In this document: piece after piece, positions 22,660-31,378 of the stretch | How positions within the stretch are numbered: the first letter of the stretch is position 1 | Layout: every line of letters begins with the position of its first letter | IMG/VR virus record: IMGVR_UViG_2648501787_000011 | Span: 1-31,378 of that record | Origin: a virus | Taxonomy: Duplodnaviria; Heunggongvirae; Uroviricota; Caudoviricetes | Strand: one strand, 5' to 3' | DNA length: 31,378 bases | The notes under the pieces: model-generated | Databases searched by the model: none | Seen by the model: only the letters and a program-made list of their open reading frames with translations | What the model was told of the DNA's origin: nothing | Translations under genes and position numbers: made by a program

Positions 22660-23207
22660 AGAACTATTCTCCCGCTGTTTCTGGCGCGGGCATACGCACT
22701 GGTCAGTGCATCATATCCGCGCAGTTCCCGCCCGGTTTCGCTCACAGGTAAAGGCACGCCATGTCGGGCAAAGGCTTCCCGAATGCAGCGCATATGCCAC
22801 TGTTTGAGCGTTTCGAGCACAACCTGCAACGATTCCCCATGACACCAGGCAAGCGTGGAAACACCCTGACCGCCATTACGTCTGGCCGTCAGGCGTTCAA
22901 CGTATTTGTCCAGCGCGACGTCGCTGATATCGGAGACGAAACCATCAAGAAACATCTGCTGCCAGATTTTATAAATCTTCTCGCGCGGTGTGACATACCC
23001 CTTAAAGCGACGGCGGGGATGTTTTTTCTGCTTCTTAAAACCGCGCTCTTTCATGGCATTGAGCACCTGTTCCAGTTGTGTAACGGACAGCTCGCGGCAA
23101 CTGGTCTTGCCCGTGCACTGCACCAGAAAGGCGCGGTAAGTGTCATCGTCGAGGTGCAACTCCCGGCGGGCAACATGAATTAATTTAATCAGGGATGTGC
23201 GGCTCAT
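22656..23207 (-). CDS. gemA: GemA-like protein (Mu gp16)
   Basis: 183 aa; directly upstream of mor with overlapping stop/start, as gemA-mor in Mu. Confidence 0.6.
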   Translation of the reverse strand: MSRTSLIKLIHVARRELHLDDDTYRAFLVQCTGKTSCRELSVTQLEQVLNAMKERGFKKQKKHPRRRFKGYVTPREKIYKIWQQMFLDGFVSDISDVALDKYVERLTARRNGGQGVSTLAWCHGESLQVVLETLKQWHMRCIREAFARHGVPLPVSETGRELRGYDALTSAYARARNSGRIVL

Positions 23208-23520
23208 TATGTCCCCCGGATTTAAAAATTAATTCAGTGTTGAATAGCTCTTTACTCATTCGCTGTAGCACATCAAGGGCGGCAACTGCCGCCACTTTAT
23301 CCTGGCTGGCAATGATTCCCCGCAACTCTTCGATAATCCATGCAGGACTTAATGATTCAGCAATCATCATGCGCTTTTCTGAAATTAAATTTTCTCTGGC
23401 CTGCTCAAAGTGCTGGTATACAACATTATCCAGAAAATAATTTACATCTTGTTCTGACATACCACTGGAAATTAAGGTTGCAGCCATTAAATCAGCATCA
23501 GTAATCATCTGTATTTTCAT
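23185..23520 (-). CDS. AT-rich hypothetical protein (early accessory region)
   Basis: About 111 aa from ATG 23520 (GAGG 9 nt upstream); AT-rich relative to neighbouring phage genes; no recognisable motif. Confidence 0.45.
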   Translation of the reverse strand: MKIQMITDADLMAATLISSGMSEQDVNYFLDNVVYQHFEQARENLISEKRMMIAESLSPAWIIEELRGIIASQDKVAAVAALDVLQRMSKELFNTELIFKSGGHNEPHIPD

Positions 23521-23695
23521 TTCGTAATACCTCTTCGCAATAAAAGATTTCACCGGGATAACGTTTTTGTATGCGCTCCATCACCTGCATACATGCCTGC
23601 TCTGTGGGCCAGATTTTTTCTGTTACCGGGATAGCATCACAGGCATCATTCCCGCAGGTGCCAACCAGCAGGACAAAGCCAATTGACTTAATCAT
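23498..23695 (-). CDS. Small Cys-containing signal-peptide protein (possible lipoprotein / exclusion-type protein)
   Basis: About 65 aa from ATG 23695 (MIKSIGFVLLVGTCGNDACD...); hydrophobic N-terminus followed by Cys; four Cys in total. Confidence 0.4.
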   Translation of the reverse strand: MIKSIGFVLLVGTCGNDACDAIPVTEKIWPTEQACMQVMERIQKRYPGEIFYCEEVLRNENTDDY

Positions 23696-24227
23696 GCTCA
23701 CTGGCTTCCTGTGTTGCCGCCGGAACCGGTGAATAATCAAGAATGAGATAGCGCATGACGTGGTCGGTGATATTCCAGCCACTGGAGCCACAAATAAAAC
23801 GTCCCAGCCGGATATCGATATACGCCATCACAAAACGGGGCATTCCCTGTTTGCACATTTCATCGCCCACTTCTGCAACGATGTAAACCGACTCGCAGGT
23901 CAGTACGCCTGTCGCAAATTCTTTTGCCAGTGCCGGAATGGCATTGCCTTCCAGCCAGGGCAAAGAGCGGCGGAACGCACACCATTGAGCATCATCAACA
24001 GCGGGGTGCTCCGTTGTGTTTCGTCTTACCGGCGGCGTCGGGCGAGGGCGCGGAACATCATAAAACCCGTTGCATTCTGTCAGCATTCCGGCATCAACCG
24101 CATCACGCAGGAAATACACCATTGAAGAAGGTGGCATATTCATTTTTTCCGCCAGAACGCCACAGGTCAGACGTCCGTAAGCCCGTAATAATGTACTGAC
24201 ACCGTTCAGAACTTTTGCATCAACCAT
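23688..24227 (-). CDS. Hypothetical early protein
   Basis: 179 aa ORF between gam and the AT-rich ORFs; Cys-rich; no recognised domain. Confidence 0.5.
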   Translation of the reverse strand: MVDAKVLNGVSTLLRAYGRLTCGVLAEKMNMPPSSMVYFLRDAVDAGMLTECNGFYDVPRPRPTPPVRRNTTEHPAVDDAQWCAFRRSLPWLEGNAIPALAKEFATGVLTCESVYIVAEVGDEMCKQGMPRFVMAYIDIRLGRFICGSSGWNITDHVMRYLILDYSPVPAATQEASEHD

Positions 24228-25868: not shown

Positions 25869-25900
25869 TTTGTTATTCCTCACAAATAAATAAGCCGTTA

Positions 25901-26128
25901 TTAACGCCAGATAATCTGACAACCATTAAGACGGGCCGTCCATACTGAACGGGCAACCCCTGATTTATGCTCCATAATCCTGACAGCATTCCTGACAAGC
26001 TCCGGTGGTGGGCAGGTGATTTCAAGCACCGGGCGGGCCACGCCCAGCCAGGATTCGTTGACGTGGCTGCCGCGCTCCTGTAACCAGCTCTTTACTTCCG
26101 TTGCCATTTTGATATTCCGTGACATCAT
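25901..26128 (-). CDS. kil: Kil-like small protein
   Basis: About 75 aa from ATG 26128 (AAGGAG overlapping B stop); position right after B and size match Mu kil. Confidence 0.5.
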
Positions 26129-26141
26129 AATTTCGCTCTCC

Positions 26142-27080
26142 TTACGTGCGCAGCAGGGTTGAAATATCAACGTCCAGGTCTAATTCACGGAAAGCCTGAC
26201 GCAGATAATCTTCATTAACACGTTCACCTTTACCGTGGGCGGTCATGGCAGCAAGGCGCAGCGAGTGGTTCAGGATGCGAAGCGCACCTGGCTTTTGTGC
26301 AATCTGCTGTAATAATTCCCGCTCGTTTTCGCCGGTAATTTGCCAGGCATCCGCAATGGCTTTTACATCATCAATTTTGGTTTTATTGATTGCCGTCCGT
26401 TTGGCAATACGGGAAAACAGGCGGGCAAATTCAACCGTTCTGTTACCACCGGTCATGTTTGAATAAACACGGTGATTCCCCATCAGAACAAGGCCAATAC
26501 GGGCGGACTCCTGTAACAGGCGGAGTTCTTCCAGAACCTCAGCGCCAAGATGATCAGCTTCGTCGATAATGACCAGCCCCTGGGTACCTTCAAGACGGCG
26601 TCGCAAAGCGCGGGAGAGTGGCCCCTTACGGCGTGGTGCGTCATTCATTCCCAGTTCATAAGCCAGTTCAGTCAGGCATTCCAGAACACTGGCACAGGAT
26701 GGGGTAATGGTAATCATCCAGACATTGTTATTGGTGCGACGAAATTCGCGGGCCGCTTCAGTTTTTCCCACACCTGGATTACCGCAGATAACAGAAATAC
26801 TTTCAGTCAGGCTGGCAAAACGCATACTCGTCCAGATTTGGCGTGCTGTTCTGGTTTCCACAAAACGTGGTGGTTCTGGCAGCTCTGCGGCACGGTGATA
26901 GTTCTCCAGCCAGCGTTCCAGCATCTGCGCAACACGTTCATTGTCGCCGTTGTACTTGTTATTCACGAATGCGCTTAACGTTCCTGCGGCCACGCCAGAC
27001 TCGCGTGCAATTTGTGCATAAGTCGCTTTTTCACTTTCTACAAGCGTGCGCAGTCCTGCGCGAATATCGGAAATATTCAT
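26142..27080 (-). CDS. B: Transposition target DNA activator B (AAA+ ATPase MuB)
   Basis: 312 aa; Walker A GNPGVGKT; recognised as near-identical to Mu B along its length. Confidence 0.95.
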
Positions 27081-27118
27081 CTGAATAACCTCGTAATTAA
27101 ATTTTGTTTAAACGTTAA

Positions 27119-29107
27119 TTAAATGGCTTTTTTACGTCTGTTCTGTTCCAGAATATCCAGCGAATGATTCAGATATTCATCACGATCAGTTTCATATTCA
27201 TCATCGGGTTCCTGGTATTTCACCTGCACCGTGTTACCGGAAGGCCGGAAAATACCAACAACCCTTGATTCTGGCGCTGCTGCTTCGGCTATCTGCGGCA
27301 GCAGTTCAGCAACTTCCAGCGCGTCCATTTGCTTCTGCGCCTTAATGGCTGCTTTAGTTGCAGATTTCAGTTGTTTCTGGCGGCGGCGATATTCGCGGCC
27401 TGCCGCAGCATCATTAAATGCAACAGGTGCCAGACATTCCGCTTCACAGATAAACCGACCGTCCAGGGTGTAACAATAAACCGTGCTGTGTAACTGCTGT
27501 GGATCAAACCTGACCACAACTTTTTTCACGCCGGCATTCATTAACGCCATGTTGTAATAAACGTTTTTCGCGCCTTTAAGGGAGCCGCCAACTTTAAGCG
27601 TAAACTCGCCTTTGCGTGAAACGTTCACCGCCTCGGCAGGCAGTAACAGCATCCGTTTTTGTTCTTCGGTTGGCTTACGCACAATCGTTCTGGCGTATTC
27701 ACGCTCGAAAACATCATCAAACGAGAGTTTGCCCCCGCACATTTCTGTTTCACGGCCTGTTCTGGCATTGAACATCGCAACACCTTCAGCAAGGGTTTTC
27801 AGAAACAGCTCTGCATCAACAGCACGGTCGCCATAGTTATCAGGTTTTGCCTGCGGATTTGGCCCCGTATATGCGCCAGCCAGTGCCGGATGCTTATCAA
27901 TGTATTCTTCAAGCCCACCAACACCGAAAGCGCGTTCAACAGGTTTTGCCTGGCCCCAGCCTTTACCGGCAACAACGCTTGTCCAGTGCATTTTTGCGCC
28001 CATCAGTAAAAACAGCCCCTTTGGATCGTCCTCTTTCACTTTAAAGCGGTAACGATTGGGCGCGCCCCCCGTCAGCCATTTATTCGCTGCACCACGGGTG
28101 TTATCAATGGTGATGTGAAAATCTTCCGGGATGCCGTAGCGTGTCACCACATCCATGAATGAGAGGCGAATTGAATCGATGTTCTCGCTTACATCGCAGC
28201 GCCAGCCCAGAATTTTTCGGGTTTTCACATCCTGCCAGAACCATGTTTTCGGGCGGATCACATCACCGTTAAACCAGCGTACAAAGACGTTATGCAGATA
28301 ACCGTCGCCGTTGATCCACTGCATGGCGTCCAGGTGTTCCACAGTTCGCTGCTGTGCCGGTATCAGATGCATCAGTGCATGTTCACCTTCACGGCAGGCA
28401 ACAACCATTGCCTCGTCCAGTTGTTGAATCCGGCGAAAGGCCGTGGCACGGGAGGGAATACTCCAGCCATGCTCGCGGGCTGCCAGTTCCAGACGCTCAT
28501 AACATTTGCGGAAGGCGGGTTTTTCCGGTCGCAGATAATCTGCAATCAGAAACTGCCAGGCATCCTCGTCAAATTCACTTTTGTGAACGTTGCGACGAGA
28601 TGCACCACGTCCATCAACAAGTGCAGCCGCCCAGTCAGGCTTCGCAAACTTCTGTACCTGGTAATACTTGTCCCGCAAAGTGGATGCGCTGACCTGGTAA
28701 TGGCCTGCAACGGTCGCAAATGCCGTTTTCGTTGAAATCCCCTGGTTCAGCATTTCGTCTGCAGCCTGAACCGCAGGCAACCATTTTTCAGCAAGTCTGC
28801 GCTGGGAATCGCTGGCGTTATCCCATTTGCTCCACAGTGCCTCACGATCATAATCATGGGCTTCCAGCGTGGGGCGGGCGATTTCAAAACGGCCCTGGCT
28901 TGTTTCAATTCTCCCTTGTTGCAACAGAATTTCAGCACGTAATGTGACAGGAAATGATTTGATATTGAATTCAAATGATACACCTTTAGTTCCTGCAACC
29001 TGCCTGAACTCCCAGCCTTCTCTTTGTGCCTTACGTGTAATGTTAGTGGCTTGCTTTGGTAAACCTGCCAAACCGAGCAACTCTTTTGCTGTATACCATT
29101 CTTTCAT
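27119..29107 (-). CDS. A: DDE transposase A (MuA), D108-type N-terminal domain
   Basis: 662 aa; from about residue 70 onward recognised as Mu A; first ~65 aa differ from Mu and resemble the c repressor N-terminus in this window. Confidence 0.95.
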
Positions 29108-29114
29108 AGCGCAC

Positions 29115-29336
29115 CTAGTATCGAGACGGCCAAATATCTTGCGGTGTCATTCCCAGTGCATCTGCAATGATTTTCTCCGCTTTCGGATATCTCTTATCCA
29201 AAGCATTTTTTAATGTTGAAGACGAAAGATGATTAGATCTTCCCAATTCAGCTAGTGACATATTGCGTTTTCGTAGCGCTGCAACGATGTCAGCTCTGTG
29301 CCAATCTTGGCTGTTAGTTCTTTTATTCATATGCAT
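29115..29336 (-). CDS. ner: Ner DNA-binding regulator
   Basis: 73 aa (D108 Ner length as I recall it; Mu Ner is 75 aa); conserved DWHRADI..A.L...ELGR and IWPSRY C-terminus; first early gene upstream of A. Confidence 0.9.
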
Positions 29337-29521
29337 TTCATGTAATCCTTTCAGATTCCCCCGTGAGCTACGCTATAAAGTAGCTCACGGCATATCGTGC
29401 AATGTAGTGTGGAATCACTTTCAAATCAATAGTGATTTGAGAGGATTTACCGCAATTTTGCATAACGGCATGATTTTTATATGAATTTATTTTATCTCTA
29501 TTGAAATCACTAGGATTTTAA
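29337..29521. promoter_or_regulatory. Immunity/operator region between ner and c (divergent promoters, Ner and repressor sites)
   Basis: Perfect inverted repeat CCGTGAGCTAC-N8-GTAGCTCACGG at 29361-29390; palindrome TCAAATCA-ATAG-TGATTTGA at 29421-29440; repeated (G)AAATCACT 9-mers at 29411-29419 and 29504-29512; AT-rich stretch at 29470-29500. Confidence 0.7.
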
Positions 29522-30046
29522 ATGATGTCTTTTGAAATCAAAGAATGGTTTAATGCGAAAGAGCTGGAAGGGATGCCTGGTGTACCAAAGTTGGCGACTA
29601 ACATTACCAGGAAAGCTGTGGCGGAAGATTGGGTAAAACGTCAGCGTCACGGTGGGAAAGGTGTCGCTTATGAGTATCACATCAACAGTCTGCCAGAAGA
29701 AACACGCAGGGCCATTAAAGGAGCCTCACTTTCTGATAAACCAGTGCATACATCAATCGCCCATACAGTTGATGAGAGGCTAATTTATGCAATGAGCTTC
29801 TTAACACCAGATGAGCAGGCCGCAGCTGTGGAGATCATTCGTGTAGCAGGGATTAAAGGTCTTATGCCTACAATTGTCAGTAAAGATAAGGCATTAGAGG
29901 CATTAGGGATTACTGTGGAGCAACAGAAAACCCTGCAAACTCTTCAGGCATTACCACCGGAAAAAGTGAGAGAGATTTTGTCTCAGTATGAAGGCAAAGA
30001 ACATAATTTCCCTGTAAGAGAAAACGATGTAAAGAAGGCTGTATAA
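29522..30046 (+). CDS. c: Repressor c (Mu/D108 immunity repressor)
   Basis: 174 aa on opposite strand to early operon, between operator and attL; N-terminus shares a DNA-binding domain with A ([26 protein letters not shown]); C-terminus LPPEKVREILSQYEG...KKAV resembles Mu c. Confidence 0.85.
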   Translation: MMSFEIKEWFNAKELEGMPGVPKLATNITRKAVAEDWVKRQRHGGKGVAYEYHINSLPEETRRAIKGASLSDKPVHTSIAHTVDERLIYAMSFLTPDEQAAAVEIIRVAGIKGLMPTIVSKDKALEALGITVEQQKTLQTLQALPPEKVREILSQYEGKEHNFPVRENDVKKAV

Positions 30047-30179
30047 CAACCAGGTAATGGCTAAGACATAAACTTCACTCCAGGTTATTACATATGTAAG
30101 ATACCCAAACAGTGATGATTGTTTTTGATACACAGCACTTGCTGAAAGCCTGGTTGTTACCGTTTTTGAAGCATTTTTG

Positions 30180-30385
30180 AAGCTGTACTTGAAATGATGC
30201 GTGAAGTAATTGCTTTTCGTGTCTTTAATGAATCAAAAGCTGTTTCCAACAATCTTTCGCGTTTCAAGATGTAACGGCTAAAATCTATCCTACAGGCTTG
30301 CAAGCCCCGCTAAATCTAATCCCGCCAAATCCCGAATAATCCAATGTCCTCCCGGTTTTTTTCGTACTTCACGTGAATCAATACA
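30180..30385 (-). repeat. Mu-type left end (attL) with MuA-binding sites
   Basis: Reverse complement starts TGTATTGATTCACGTGAAGTACGAAAA (L1-like); second site around 30258-30275 contains TGAAACGCGAAAG (L2-like); further CGAAAA repeat inward. Confidence 0.8.
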
Positions 30386-30397
30386 ATGTTCAATTCC

Positions 30398-31378
30398 TTA
30401 CTTACTGATAAGACGGTCAAGGGCGACAGCCGCGATAATTAATCCGCCCATCACCACCAGTTGGTAATAGGTTTGTACCTGCAAAATATTCAGACCGTTG
30501 TTGATGGTGCCGATGATCAACCCGCCAATCACCACAGAGAAAATGCGCCCCTTGCCGCCGAAGAAACTGGTGCCGCCAATGATGGCGCTGGCAATGGCAT
30601 AGGTTTCAAAACCCATACCGGCAAGCGGTTCTGCGGCACCGAGTCGTGCAGTTGAGACGACGCCTGCCAGACCTGCACAAACACCGGAGATGATAAACAC
30701 CACCAGGATGTGGAATTTCACGTCAATCCCGGAATAGAACGCCGAGTTTTTGTTGCCGCCCAGTGCGTAGATGTTGCGCCCGAGCCGCATACGCGTTGTC
30801 AGAAACCAAAGGATGAGCGCGACAATTAGCGAGAAGATAACGGGGACAGGTATCCCAATTACGCTGGCGGCAAAGAAGTTCACGAAGTCAAATGAGAAGC
30901 CGTATACCGAGTTGGCATCGGAGATCACCAGCGTGATCCCACGGAAAATAGCGTTGGTGCCAAGGGTGATAATGAACGGGTGTAGTCCCGTCCAGTTGAC
31001 CAGGCAGCCGTTGATCGCCCCCAGTGCGCCGCCAACCAGTACACCGCCAATCAGCGCCGCGAGAAACGGATCAATACCTGCCAACATCAGTTTAGCGGTC
31101 ACCATACCGGAAAGCGCCAGAATCGCGCCAACCGAAAGGTCGATACCAGCGACCAGGATAGCGAAAAACTCGCCCATGCCGATCAATACCGTCACGGAGC
31201 TTTGCACAAAAATCTGGGTAATATTATTGGTGGTCAGAAAATATTCTGACGACAGCGAACCAAAAATGGCGACGATGATTGCCAGGATAAAAAAGGTGCC
31301 GTATTTATCCCAGAACAGCGCAAAGTTGAACGGTTTCTTCTCGCTCGCTTCGCTTTTTACTCTTGTGGTAAAGCCCAT
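30398..31378 (-). CDS. Host sugar ABC transporter permease (RbsC/AlsC family)
   Basis: 326 aa polytopic membrane protein; start codon is the last 3 nt of the window. Length and family fit a D-allose/ribose-type permease, but the gene name is not verifiable here. Confidence 0.85.
   Translation of the reverse strand: MGFTTRVKSEASEKKPFNFALFWDKYGTFFILAIIVAIFGSLSSEYFLTTNNITQIFVQSSVTVLIGMGEFFAILVAGIDLSVGAILALSGMVTAKLMLAGIDPFLAALIGGVLVGGALGAINGCLVNWTGLHPFIITLGTNAIFRGITLVISDANSVYGFSFDFVNFFAASVIGIPVPVIFSLIVALILWFLTTRMRLGRNIYALGGNKNSAFYSGIDVKFHILVVFIISGVCAGLAGVVSTARLGAAEPLAGMGFETYAIASAIIGGTSFFGGKGRIFSVVIGGLIIGTINNGLNILQVQTYYQLVVMGGLIIAAVALDRLISK

Follow-up and report, generated by a model that had tools for sequence, protein, structure and literature searches.

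The region described here is closely related to those of the Escherichia phages D108 and Mu, with PhiR68_1 of Escherichia and SfMu of Shigella as further relatives. According to PMC3145075, the E element of Mu overlaps O1–O3 and is located about 1 kb from its L end. In Mu both repressor and transposase begin with a winged-helix domain, an arrangement that also occurs in D108. SfMu belongs to the Mu group and has D108-like immunity (c identical at 157 of 174 residues), while PhiR68_1 represents a third immunity type. The boundary between Mu and D108 was reportedly published by Mizuuchi, Weisberg and Mizuuchi in 1986 (NAR 14:3813), and Harshey et al. (1985) also belongs to the literature on this control region.

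The stretch of DNA analysed (the window) is 31,378 nucleotides in length and its features are listed in Table 1. The region near its end is very probably the module that controls immunity and transposition in a transposable Mu-family prophage of the D108 immunity type, inserted where alsE begins on an E. coli chromosome. The flanking host DNA exhibits 100% identity to E. coli alsC/alsE, with the alsE start at locus position 302 and the flank match beginning at position 301. The left end of the prophage shows 96–100% identity to the D108 left end compared with 72–91% to that of Mu. The consensus RAARYRCGAAAR is matched at three predicted transposase-binding cores, L1 (30359–30370), L2 (30254–30265) and L3 (30214–30225), and the D108 annotation places binding sites at the homologous positions. 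The module follows about 1 kb from this end as leftward c, the operator region and rightward ner-A-B, with all four genes found where the preliminary description had placed them. Mu-type elements insert essentially at random and duplicate 5 bp of the target; the right end of the prophage lies beyond the window. The same prophage lineage is present in about 38–45 complete E. coli genomes, where related prophages occupy different loci; the copy in RIVM_C036569 is bordered by ACGAG on both sides.

Table 1. Features of the control module and its surroundings, in window coordinates.
Feature	Position	Strand	Description
Host flank	30386–31378	-	Insertion site; alsC (30398–31378) plus nt 1–2 of the alsE start codon
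Left end (attL)	30214–30385	-	Terminal sequence 5'-TGTATTGATTCACGTGAAGTACGAAAA; three predicted transposase-binding cores
c repressor gene	29522–30046	+	174 aa, begins MMSFEIKEW...; D108 immunity type
c codons 6–65	29537–29716	+	Winged-helix DNA-binding segment resembling the transposase N-terminus
c-ner intergenic control region	29337–29521	.	Predicted operator and transpositional enhancer, by homology with Mu
Perfect inverted repeat	29361–29390	.	CCGTGAGCTAC-N8-GTAGCTCACGG; 11 bp arms, 8 bp spacer; just upstream of ner
ner gene	29115–29336	-	73 aa, D108 type
Transposase A gene	27119–29107	-	662 aa
A codons 1–60	28928–29107	-	I-alpha domain (enhancer-binding, by homology), D108 type; partner of the c N-terminal segment
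Mu-homology boundary	28900–28919	-	A codons 63–70, I-alpha/I-beta linker
A codons ~610–649	27161–27280	-	C-terminal stretch specific to this prophage lineage
120-bp island	27041–27160	-	Last ~14 codons of A, intergenic spacer, B codons 1–13
B gene	26142–27080	-	312 aa, AAA+ target-capture ATPase (by homology); lineage-specific variant from codon 14

The immunity region

The c product is identical to D108 c at 172 of 174 residues (98.9%) and shows 33% identity to Mu c. A PF02316 domain was identified by Pfam at residues 13–147 (E 3e-51), and the winged-helix segment matches two PDB entries, 1TNS for MuA I-alpha (E 7e-8) and 1G4D for the DNA-binding domain of the Mu repressor (E 6e-4). Ner, which contains PF13693 (Pfam, E 8e-29), is identical to D108 Ner at 71 of 73 residues (97.3%) compared with 49% for Mu Ner. 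The same pattern is found in the first 62 residues of the transposase, where 61 are identical to D108 (98.4%) and 25 to Mu (40%). The assignment of ner, c and the A N-terminus to the D108 type is thus borne out, as is the Mu/D108 arrangement of paralogous winged-helix heads on repressor and transposase, since PF02316 is found in both proteins and 1TNS and 1G4D are matched. The operator DNA is also of the D108 type, with a Ner repeat identical to that of D108, conserved operator blocks and polymorphism confined to a spacer. Judged from the sequences of c, ner, the I-alpha segment of A and the operator, the prophage is predicted to have D108 immunity and to be heteroimmune with Mu. PGAP labels such genes as "MerR family regulator", "helix-turn-helix protein" and "transposase domain protein"; they are in fact D108-type c, ner and A, and the practical worth of the finding is in the annotation of these prophage genes.

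The intergenic region between c and ner is 864–1048 bp away from the left end. Within 29337–29545, a stretch that includes this region, the hexamer AAATCA/TGATTT is enriched, with five copies against an expectation of about 0.24, and five copies are reached in 15 of 1000 shuffles. The 11-8-11 inverted repeat is the sole match to this pattern in the whole window, where none is expected by chance, and D108, Mu_3F6, SfMu and three E. coli prophages all carry its arms unchanged. We take this repeat upstream of ner to be the D108-type Ner operator known from the work of the DuBow laboratory. A dip in identity to D108 at 29400–29545 was considered as a sign of an altered operator; this idea was dropped because six relatives show a polymorphic spacer between conserved blocks, placed at ~29440–29470 in the alignment of seven D108-type sequences. 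A search for the IHF consensus WATCARNNNNTTR found no match in the operator region, the only three matches of the window lying elsewhere at chance level, and a simple sigma-70 scan of 29050–30400 did not report the early promoter Pe. The sequence TTGATT-N17-TACATT at 29401–29429 is a promoter candidate and a weak guess, as just 8 of 12 positions match.

Transposase A, B and the recombination joints

The A product carries PF02316 (I-alpha/I-beta), PF09039 (I-gamma), PF02914 (DDE core) and PF09299 (domain III), with Pfam E values from 3e-41 to 5e-136, and matches PDB entries 4FCY (residues 76–604), 1BCM, 2EZK, 2EZH and 1TNS. It is identical to D108 A at 650 of 662 residues and to Mu A at 613 of 662. 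In megablast and blastn searches the matches to Mu begin at window position 28919, which is A codon 63, and identity is full from codon 67, in good agreement with the breakpoint near codons 65–70 proposed in the preliminary description. That description had also called the rest of A and B almost identical to Mu. For A this holds over codons 77–574 (~100% amino acid identity). For B it was an overstatement, with 89.7% amino acid identity and 84–88% DNA identity to Mu, and a DNA identity to isolated phages of 72.9% over codons 14–93 and 88.5% over codons 94–312. The B product contains the MuB C-terminal domain (PF09077, E 3e-33) and an AAA+ domain (PF13401, E 3e-21).

The boundary at codon 63 might reflect a fresh recombination that joined the immunity cassette of D108 to a Mu genome by a crossover in A codons 65–70. 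Besides the start of Mu homology at this codon, such an event would account for the window having the Mu base at 31 of the 35 sites between 27860 and 27224 at which D108 and Mu differ, so that A in its 3' part resembles Mu (97.9%) more than D108 (93.8%). However, the four-way alignment places the same boundary at codon ~63 in D108 itself, SfMu and PhiR68_1, and the joint is therefore not peculiar to this element. The window is also colinear with D108 across the joint at 96–100% identity, and downstream of B codon 14 nothing is Mu-grade: B falls to 73–88%, the genes from kil to gp11 to ~85%, and the late proteins to 28–50% at the amino acid level. Since the DNA from attL through A (30385–27007) aligns to a single reference, D108, as one megablast piece with 96.3% identity, which is the outcome that the preliminary description had named as speaking against its reading, the joint represents no new graft. 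The fresh recombinant is largely refuted and we consider it very unlikely. The joint at A codon ~63 is the classic Mu/D108 heteroimmunity boundary and is not new; it was inherited from the D108 lineage.

The recombination joints of this prophage are at the 3' end of A (codon ~610, ~27280) and the 5' end of B (codon ~14, ~27040). Between them, the DNA of A codons ~610–649 is 83–87% identical to Mu, D108, SfMu and PhiR68_1 (83% for D108) and 97.5–100% identical to the E. coli prophages of STEC719, RIVM_C036569 and PEC422. The adjoining 120-bp island exhibits zero mismatches to Mu and 100% identity to D108, Mu, Mu_3F6 and PhiR68_1. A maximum chi-square breakpoint test located a break at window position 27034, with a divergence of 3.2% towards A and of 15.6% towards B. 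A third joint, relative to a sister prophage, is found at 26128.

Likeness of the repressor and transposase N-termini

Residues 6–65 of c align without gaps to residues 1–60 of A, with 33 of 60 identical (55%), 41 of 60 positive and an E value of 6e-18. The similarity is real, although the earlier wording "near-identical" overstated it. It is far beyond chance, as the Smith-Waterman score of 164 compares with 23 ± 4.3 (maximum 45) in 2000 shuffles (z = 32). The corresponding identities are 33/60 in D108, 26/64 in Mu and 39/58 in PhiR68_1. A repressor that shares its head with the transposase accompanies 34 of 65 MuA homologues in GTDB genomes, counted among those with an intact N-terminus. The score is 169 for cognate c/A pairs and 106 for non-cognate ones, and none of 10000 permutations reaches the observed sum, a comparison that still includes shared ancestry. 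The cognate specificity is not absolute; the c of the window scores 189 against the A N-terminus of PhiR68_1 and 164 against its own A, which ranks fifth of 27 for this repressor. The KKA[V/I] C-terminus common to c and A is not a general feature of distant c/A pairs. The small phage matrix leaves out Vibrio phage martha and Mannheimia phage 3927AP2; each has two tblastn places, and the annotation of their repressors is LexA-type or plain helix-turn-helix regulator. Repressors that carry a transposase-like head occur commonly throughout Gammaproteobacteria, some of them fused to a LexA-like S24 domain. Their spread is perhaps of modest use for the study of transposable-phage evolution.

In many lineages cognate pairs resemble each other more than non-cognate ones do, and repeated conversion would lead to the same pattern; this speaks for recent duplication or gene conversion in place of old paralogy selected for a common DNA target. 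Against this, the codon-aligned DNA of c and A is just 58% identical, with 26 of 60 third codon positions matching (43%), and the longest nucleotide match is 71 nt at 74.6%. The identical 33/60 in D108 and in the window further argues that the c/A pair has not changed since the two diverged. A recent origin of the likeness is therefore most improbable, and old paralogy selected for a common target is preferred.

The c gene and the ner-A-B operon diverge from the operator region of ~185 bp, and c and A each start with a paralogous winged-helix domain (I-alpha in MuA). By homology with Mu and D108, the two proteins are proposed to recognise one operator/enhancer DNA, located ~0.9–1.0 kb from the left end. 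The repressor, once bound, would thus both shut the early promoter and keep the enhancer from the transposase; DNA binding by the two proteins and competition between them are predicted by analogy with these phages. The variable "immunity cassette" comprises the operators together with c, ner and the part of A that encodes I-alpha, and hence ends at the I-alpha/I-beta linker (codon ~63). The control region is known Mu/D108 biology. Because its recognition here rediscovers textbook knowledge, it leaves the field unchanged.

Possible exchange of the transposition apparatus and comparison with known phages

The first 3.4 kb of the prophage is 96.3% identical to D108, but the idea that the element is simply D108 (or Mu) itself as a non-mosaic prophage is ruled out for all practical purposes by the 72.9% DNA identity of B codons 14–93, by the absence of megablast matches to isolated phages across most of window 1–23000, and by late proteins just 28–50% identical to those of Mu. 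Nor does the nucleotide similarity across the genome place the prophage in the same species as Mu/D108 (Muvirus mu), as there are only scattered patches of 70–75% beyond window 23700, and the coverage of window 1–24000 by any isolated phage is at most 14%. The "Mu-like backbone" of the preliminary description is hence accurate for gene order and not for the late proteins; the late genes belong to a different, distantly Mu-like lineage.

Close relatives were found among E. coli prophages. Uncharacterised prophages of the same lineage, such as those of STEC719, RIVM_C036569 and PEC422, exhibit 96.5–98.5% identity to the window in the early region and 94–98.7% in the late region. The E. coli relatives are each at a different chromosomal site, none at alsE, and differ from the window by small polymorphisms only. 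The prophage of E. coli TD225-C4 (NZ_CP035860) has a kil-to-mom body 95–99% identical to the window lineage, whereas both of its ends are swapped together with c, ner, A and B. Its attL and attR are different (TTTGATAC-type repeats), its repressor is of the CI type (PF07022) without an I-alpha-like head, and its A and B are 25% and 40% identical to those of the window. There are thus two prophage sets with a 95–99% identical kil-to-mom body, one with a Mu/D108-type apparatus and the other with an unrelated one, and the swap joints coincide exactly with the B/kil spacer on one side and directly follow mom on the other. It is about as likely as not that in this E. coli prophage lineage the whole transposition apparatus, with both genome ends as well as the repressor, ner, A and B, is exchanged as a single unit. 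The lineage-specific C-terminus of A (codons ~610–649) travels with the B of its own lineage, which suggests a co-adapted A-B interface. If general, such exchange would supply naturally occurring chimeras that could show where MuA, MuB and the ends have to be matched to one another, and the double-ended swap of the transposition module is perhaps of modest use for transposable-phage evolution and for work on the MuA-MuB interface.

Among isolated phages, D108 is closest in the early region, where the attL-c-ner-A-B order and the Ner-operator repeat are identical to those of the window and the position of the Mu joint and the c/A likeness are shared. The differences are ~10 positions in the operator spacer of ~30 bp, A codons 416–609, which are closer to Mu than to D108 in the window, and the divergent A codons 610–649 and B from codon 14. 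Homologues of gp6 and gp12–15 are absent or replaced, and the late region is unrelated to D108 at the DNA level. Mu (NC_000929) shares the architecture, including an enhancer/operator ~1 kb from the left end, and 96.6–97.9% DNA identity over A codons 64–609; its immunity differs, with a c of 196 aa. D108 corresponds to NC_013594 / GQ357916. SfMu and PhiR68_1 have the cassette boundary within A as in the window, and differ from it in having Mu-grade B genes and late regions.

Prophage layout and the shared N-terminal segment

The left terminus of the Mu-like prophage is located at position 30385, from which the minus-strand sequence begins 5'-TGTATTGATTCACGTGAAGTACGAAAA. The insertion point lies after the second base of the alsE start codon, immediately past alsC, and the prophage cuts alsE off from the remaining allose operon. 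Several E. coli genomes match the host flank (30386–31378) at 100% identity.

Features of the prophage and its host flank (window positions)
Feature	Position	Strand	Comment
Mu-like prophage, left ~30.4 kb	1–30385		minus-strand reading
Transposase-binding cores (n=3)	30359–30370, 30254–30265, 30214–30225		
c (repressor)	29522–30046	+	
Control region, 185 bp	29337–29521		between c and ner
ner	29115–29336	-	rightward gene
A (transposase)	27119–29107	-	rightward gene
B (target-capture ATPase)	26142–27080	-	rightward gene
E. coli alsC, intact	30398–31378		host flank adjoining prophage

An ungapped alignment of c residues 6–65 with A residues 1–60 contains 33/60 identical positions (E-value 6e-18), with a local alignment score 32 standard deviations over 2000 shuffles. 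Both products match PF02316, the Pfam "Mu DNA-binding domain" (E-values 3e-51 for c and 3e-41 for A). The N-terminus of c also matches the solved I-alpha domain of MuA (1TNS, E-value 7e-8) and the DNA-binding domain of the Mu repressor (1G4D, E-value 6e-4), and A matches all solved MuA fragments. The alignment statistics, the common Pfam domain and the matches to solved domains together indicate that the similarity is real and due to homology. The preliminary observation is confirmed in substance, and the Mu/D108-type arrangement that it describes is supported, but at 55% identity the segment is not near-identical as proposed. In DNA, the c and A segments share 58% identity, falling to 43% at third codon positions; the pair is an old paralogy and not a recent copy. 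Both proteins also end in a basic KKA[V/I] tail (c, ...NDVKKAV, 30023–30043; A, ...NRRKKAI, 27122–27142), reminiscent of the ClpX recognition signals of MuA and the Mu repressor; this tail is not conserved among the distant c/A pairs compared.

Immunity type and mosaic structure

The immunity region is of the D108 type, as first described. Identity to D108 is 172/174 residues for c, 71/73 for ner and 650/662 for A, against 33% (c), 49% (ner) and 40% (A residues 1–62) to Mu, while A residues 77–574 are essentially identical to both phages. By megablast, window positions 30385–27007 align to D108 in one piece (96.3%), whereas the Mu alignment starts only from 28919 onward. In a four-way alignment, similarity to Mu resumes at A codon 63 and identity is complete from codon 67 on, in agreement with the predicted joint near codons 65–70. 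The same joint is found in D108, SfMu and PhiR68_1, the last of which carries a third immunity type. It is therefore inherited and not new, and a graft of D108 immunity in this element is not supported. The joint is the classic limit of the heteroimmunity region of Mu and D108, published in 1986 (Mizuuchi, Weisberg & Mizuuchi, NAR 14:3813). Homology between c and A was reportedly described for Mu by Harshey et al. (1985, PNAS 82:7676); both papers are cited in PMC3820752. The biology of the arrangement and of the immunity boundary has been known since 1985–86; the element is a member of the Mu/D108 kind without earlier characterisation.

Mosaic structure was mapped by sliding comparison, a breakpoint test and a segment table covering eight relatives. 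DNA of D108 grade (97–100% identity) extends from attL to A codon 63, and A codons 64–609 are shared by all of the Mu group (94–99%); at 27860–27224 the window has the Mu base at 31/35 sites that differ between D108 and Mu. A codons ~610–649 (27161–27280) share 83–87% DNA identity with every isolated phage and 97.5–100% with E. coli prophages. The description of the rest of A as almost identical to Mu holds for residues 77–574. The same claim is overstated for B, where codons 14–93 are 72.9% and the remainder 88.5% identical to isolated phages. A 120-bp island (27041–27160), which runs from the final codons of A across the spacer and through B codons 1–13, matches Mu and D108 perfectly (100%). 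It is flanked by two stretches strongly diverged from isolated Mu-group phages, A codons 610–649 and B codons 14–93 (26801–27040), both conserved among E. coli prophages. The A C-terminus and B N-terminus may be co-adapted.

The segment from kil to gp11 is ~85% identical to Mu. A Mu gp6 homologue is missing (25874–25901), and one 122-aa ORF (phrog_1988, 23185–23700) takes the place of Mu gp12–gp15. Past ~23700 no useful similarity to Mu remains at the DNA level, and the late proteins are 28–50% identical, which does not fit a Mu-like backbone; Mu gene order is nevertheless kept across 1–23700. Among the isolated phages in the collection, coverage of window positions 1–24000 does not exceed 14%, leaving this region without a close relative among them; the top match, Klebsiella phage Kp4866-3, covers 14% of the query at 72% identity.

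Control region and repressor–transposase pairing

In Mu, the enhancer is reportedly bound both by the I-alpha domain of MuA and by the homologous domain of the repressor (Mizuuchi & Mizuuchi 1989; Leung et al. 1989; Clubb et al. 1994; Wojciak et al. 2001). By analogy, binding of c and A to the same enhancer/operator DNA, and competition between them for it, are inferred for this element, and bound repressor would thereby silence the early promoter and also block transpososome assembly.

The Mu transpositional enhancer (E, or IAS) is described as overlapping operators O1–O3, ~1 kb from the left end (PMC3145075). The control region of the window lies 864–1048 bp from the prophage end. Five copies of the hexamer AAATCA/TGATTT fall within 29337–29545, ~20-fold over the window average. 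Also in the control region is a perfect inverted repeat with an 11-8-11 layout, CCGTGAGCTAC-N8-GTAGCTCACGG (29361–29390), which is the sole copy in the window, is invariant across all D108-type relatives compared and corresponds to the D108 Ner operator. A ~30-bp spacer in the operator region (29440–29470) is polymorphic across all D108-type prophages between conserved flanking blocks, which accounts for a local dip to 88–91% identity with D108.

The c/A pairing was surveyed at 80 genomic loci encoding MuA relatives (one genome per species), 65 of which have an intact A N-terminus. A divergent upstream gene whose product starts with a segment like its own transposase is present at 34/65 loci. 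Among 27 non-redundant pairs the mean score was 169 for cognate and 106 for non-cognate combinations, and the own transposase ranked first for nine repressors (one expected by chance). The observed sum was never reached in 10000 permutations, a result to which shared ancestry contributes. Because of this contribution, and because the window's c scores slightly higher against the A of PhiR68_1 than against its own, cognate matching appears to be a tendency and not a strict specificity.

In some surveyed repressors the transposase-like head is combined with a Peptidase_S24 domain of the LexA type. Examples are the upstream ORFs of Vibrio europaeus (locus L027, 346–1174, minus strand) and Mannheimia haemolytica (locus L052, 441–1119, minus strand), each with the head at the N-terminus and the peptidase domain at the C-terminus. 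Judging by this architecture, the Mu-type repressors of these distant Mu-like prophages may be SOS-cleavable.

Distribution and comparison with a sister prophage

The early region is present in 38 complete E. coli genomes (96.5–98.5% identity) and the late region in ~45 (94–98.7%). Each inspected copy occupies a different chromosomal site, as expected of a phage that transposes.

The sister prophage of E. coli TD225-C4 (NZ_CP035860; loci L003, 1–11001, and L094, 4300–4480) is 98.7% identical to the window in the late region and 95% from kil onward, with the joint at 26128 in the B/kil spacer. Beyond it, the TD225-C4 prophage carries a CI-type repressor, a different ner, and A and B that are only 25% and 40% identical to those of the window. 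Its attL and attR are both unlike those of the window's lineage, and its right end carries TTTGATAC-type repeats matching its own left end. The RIVM_C036569 prophage (loci L093, 4340–4470, and L010, 1190–1400), which is closely related to the window, is 99.3% identical to that of TD225-C4 as far as the end of mom and divergent beyond; its right end is of the Mu type, with a 5-bp target duplication, ACGAG, as its flank. As the body from kil to mom is 95–99% identical while c, ner, A, B and both ends differ, these comparisons indicate that exchange on this backbone took in the entire transposition apparatus together with both ends, and not just the immunity cassette.
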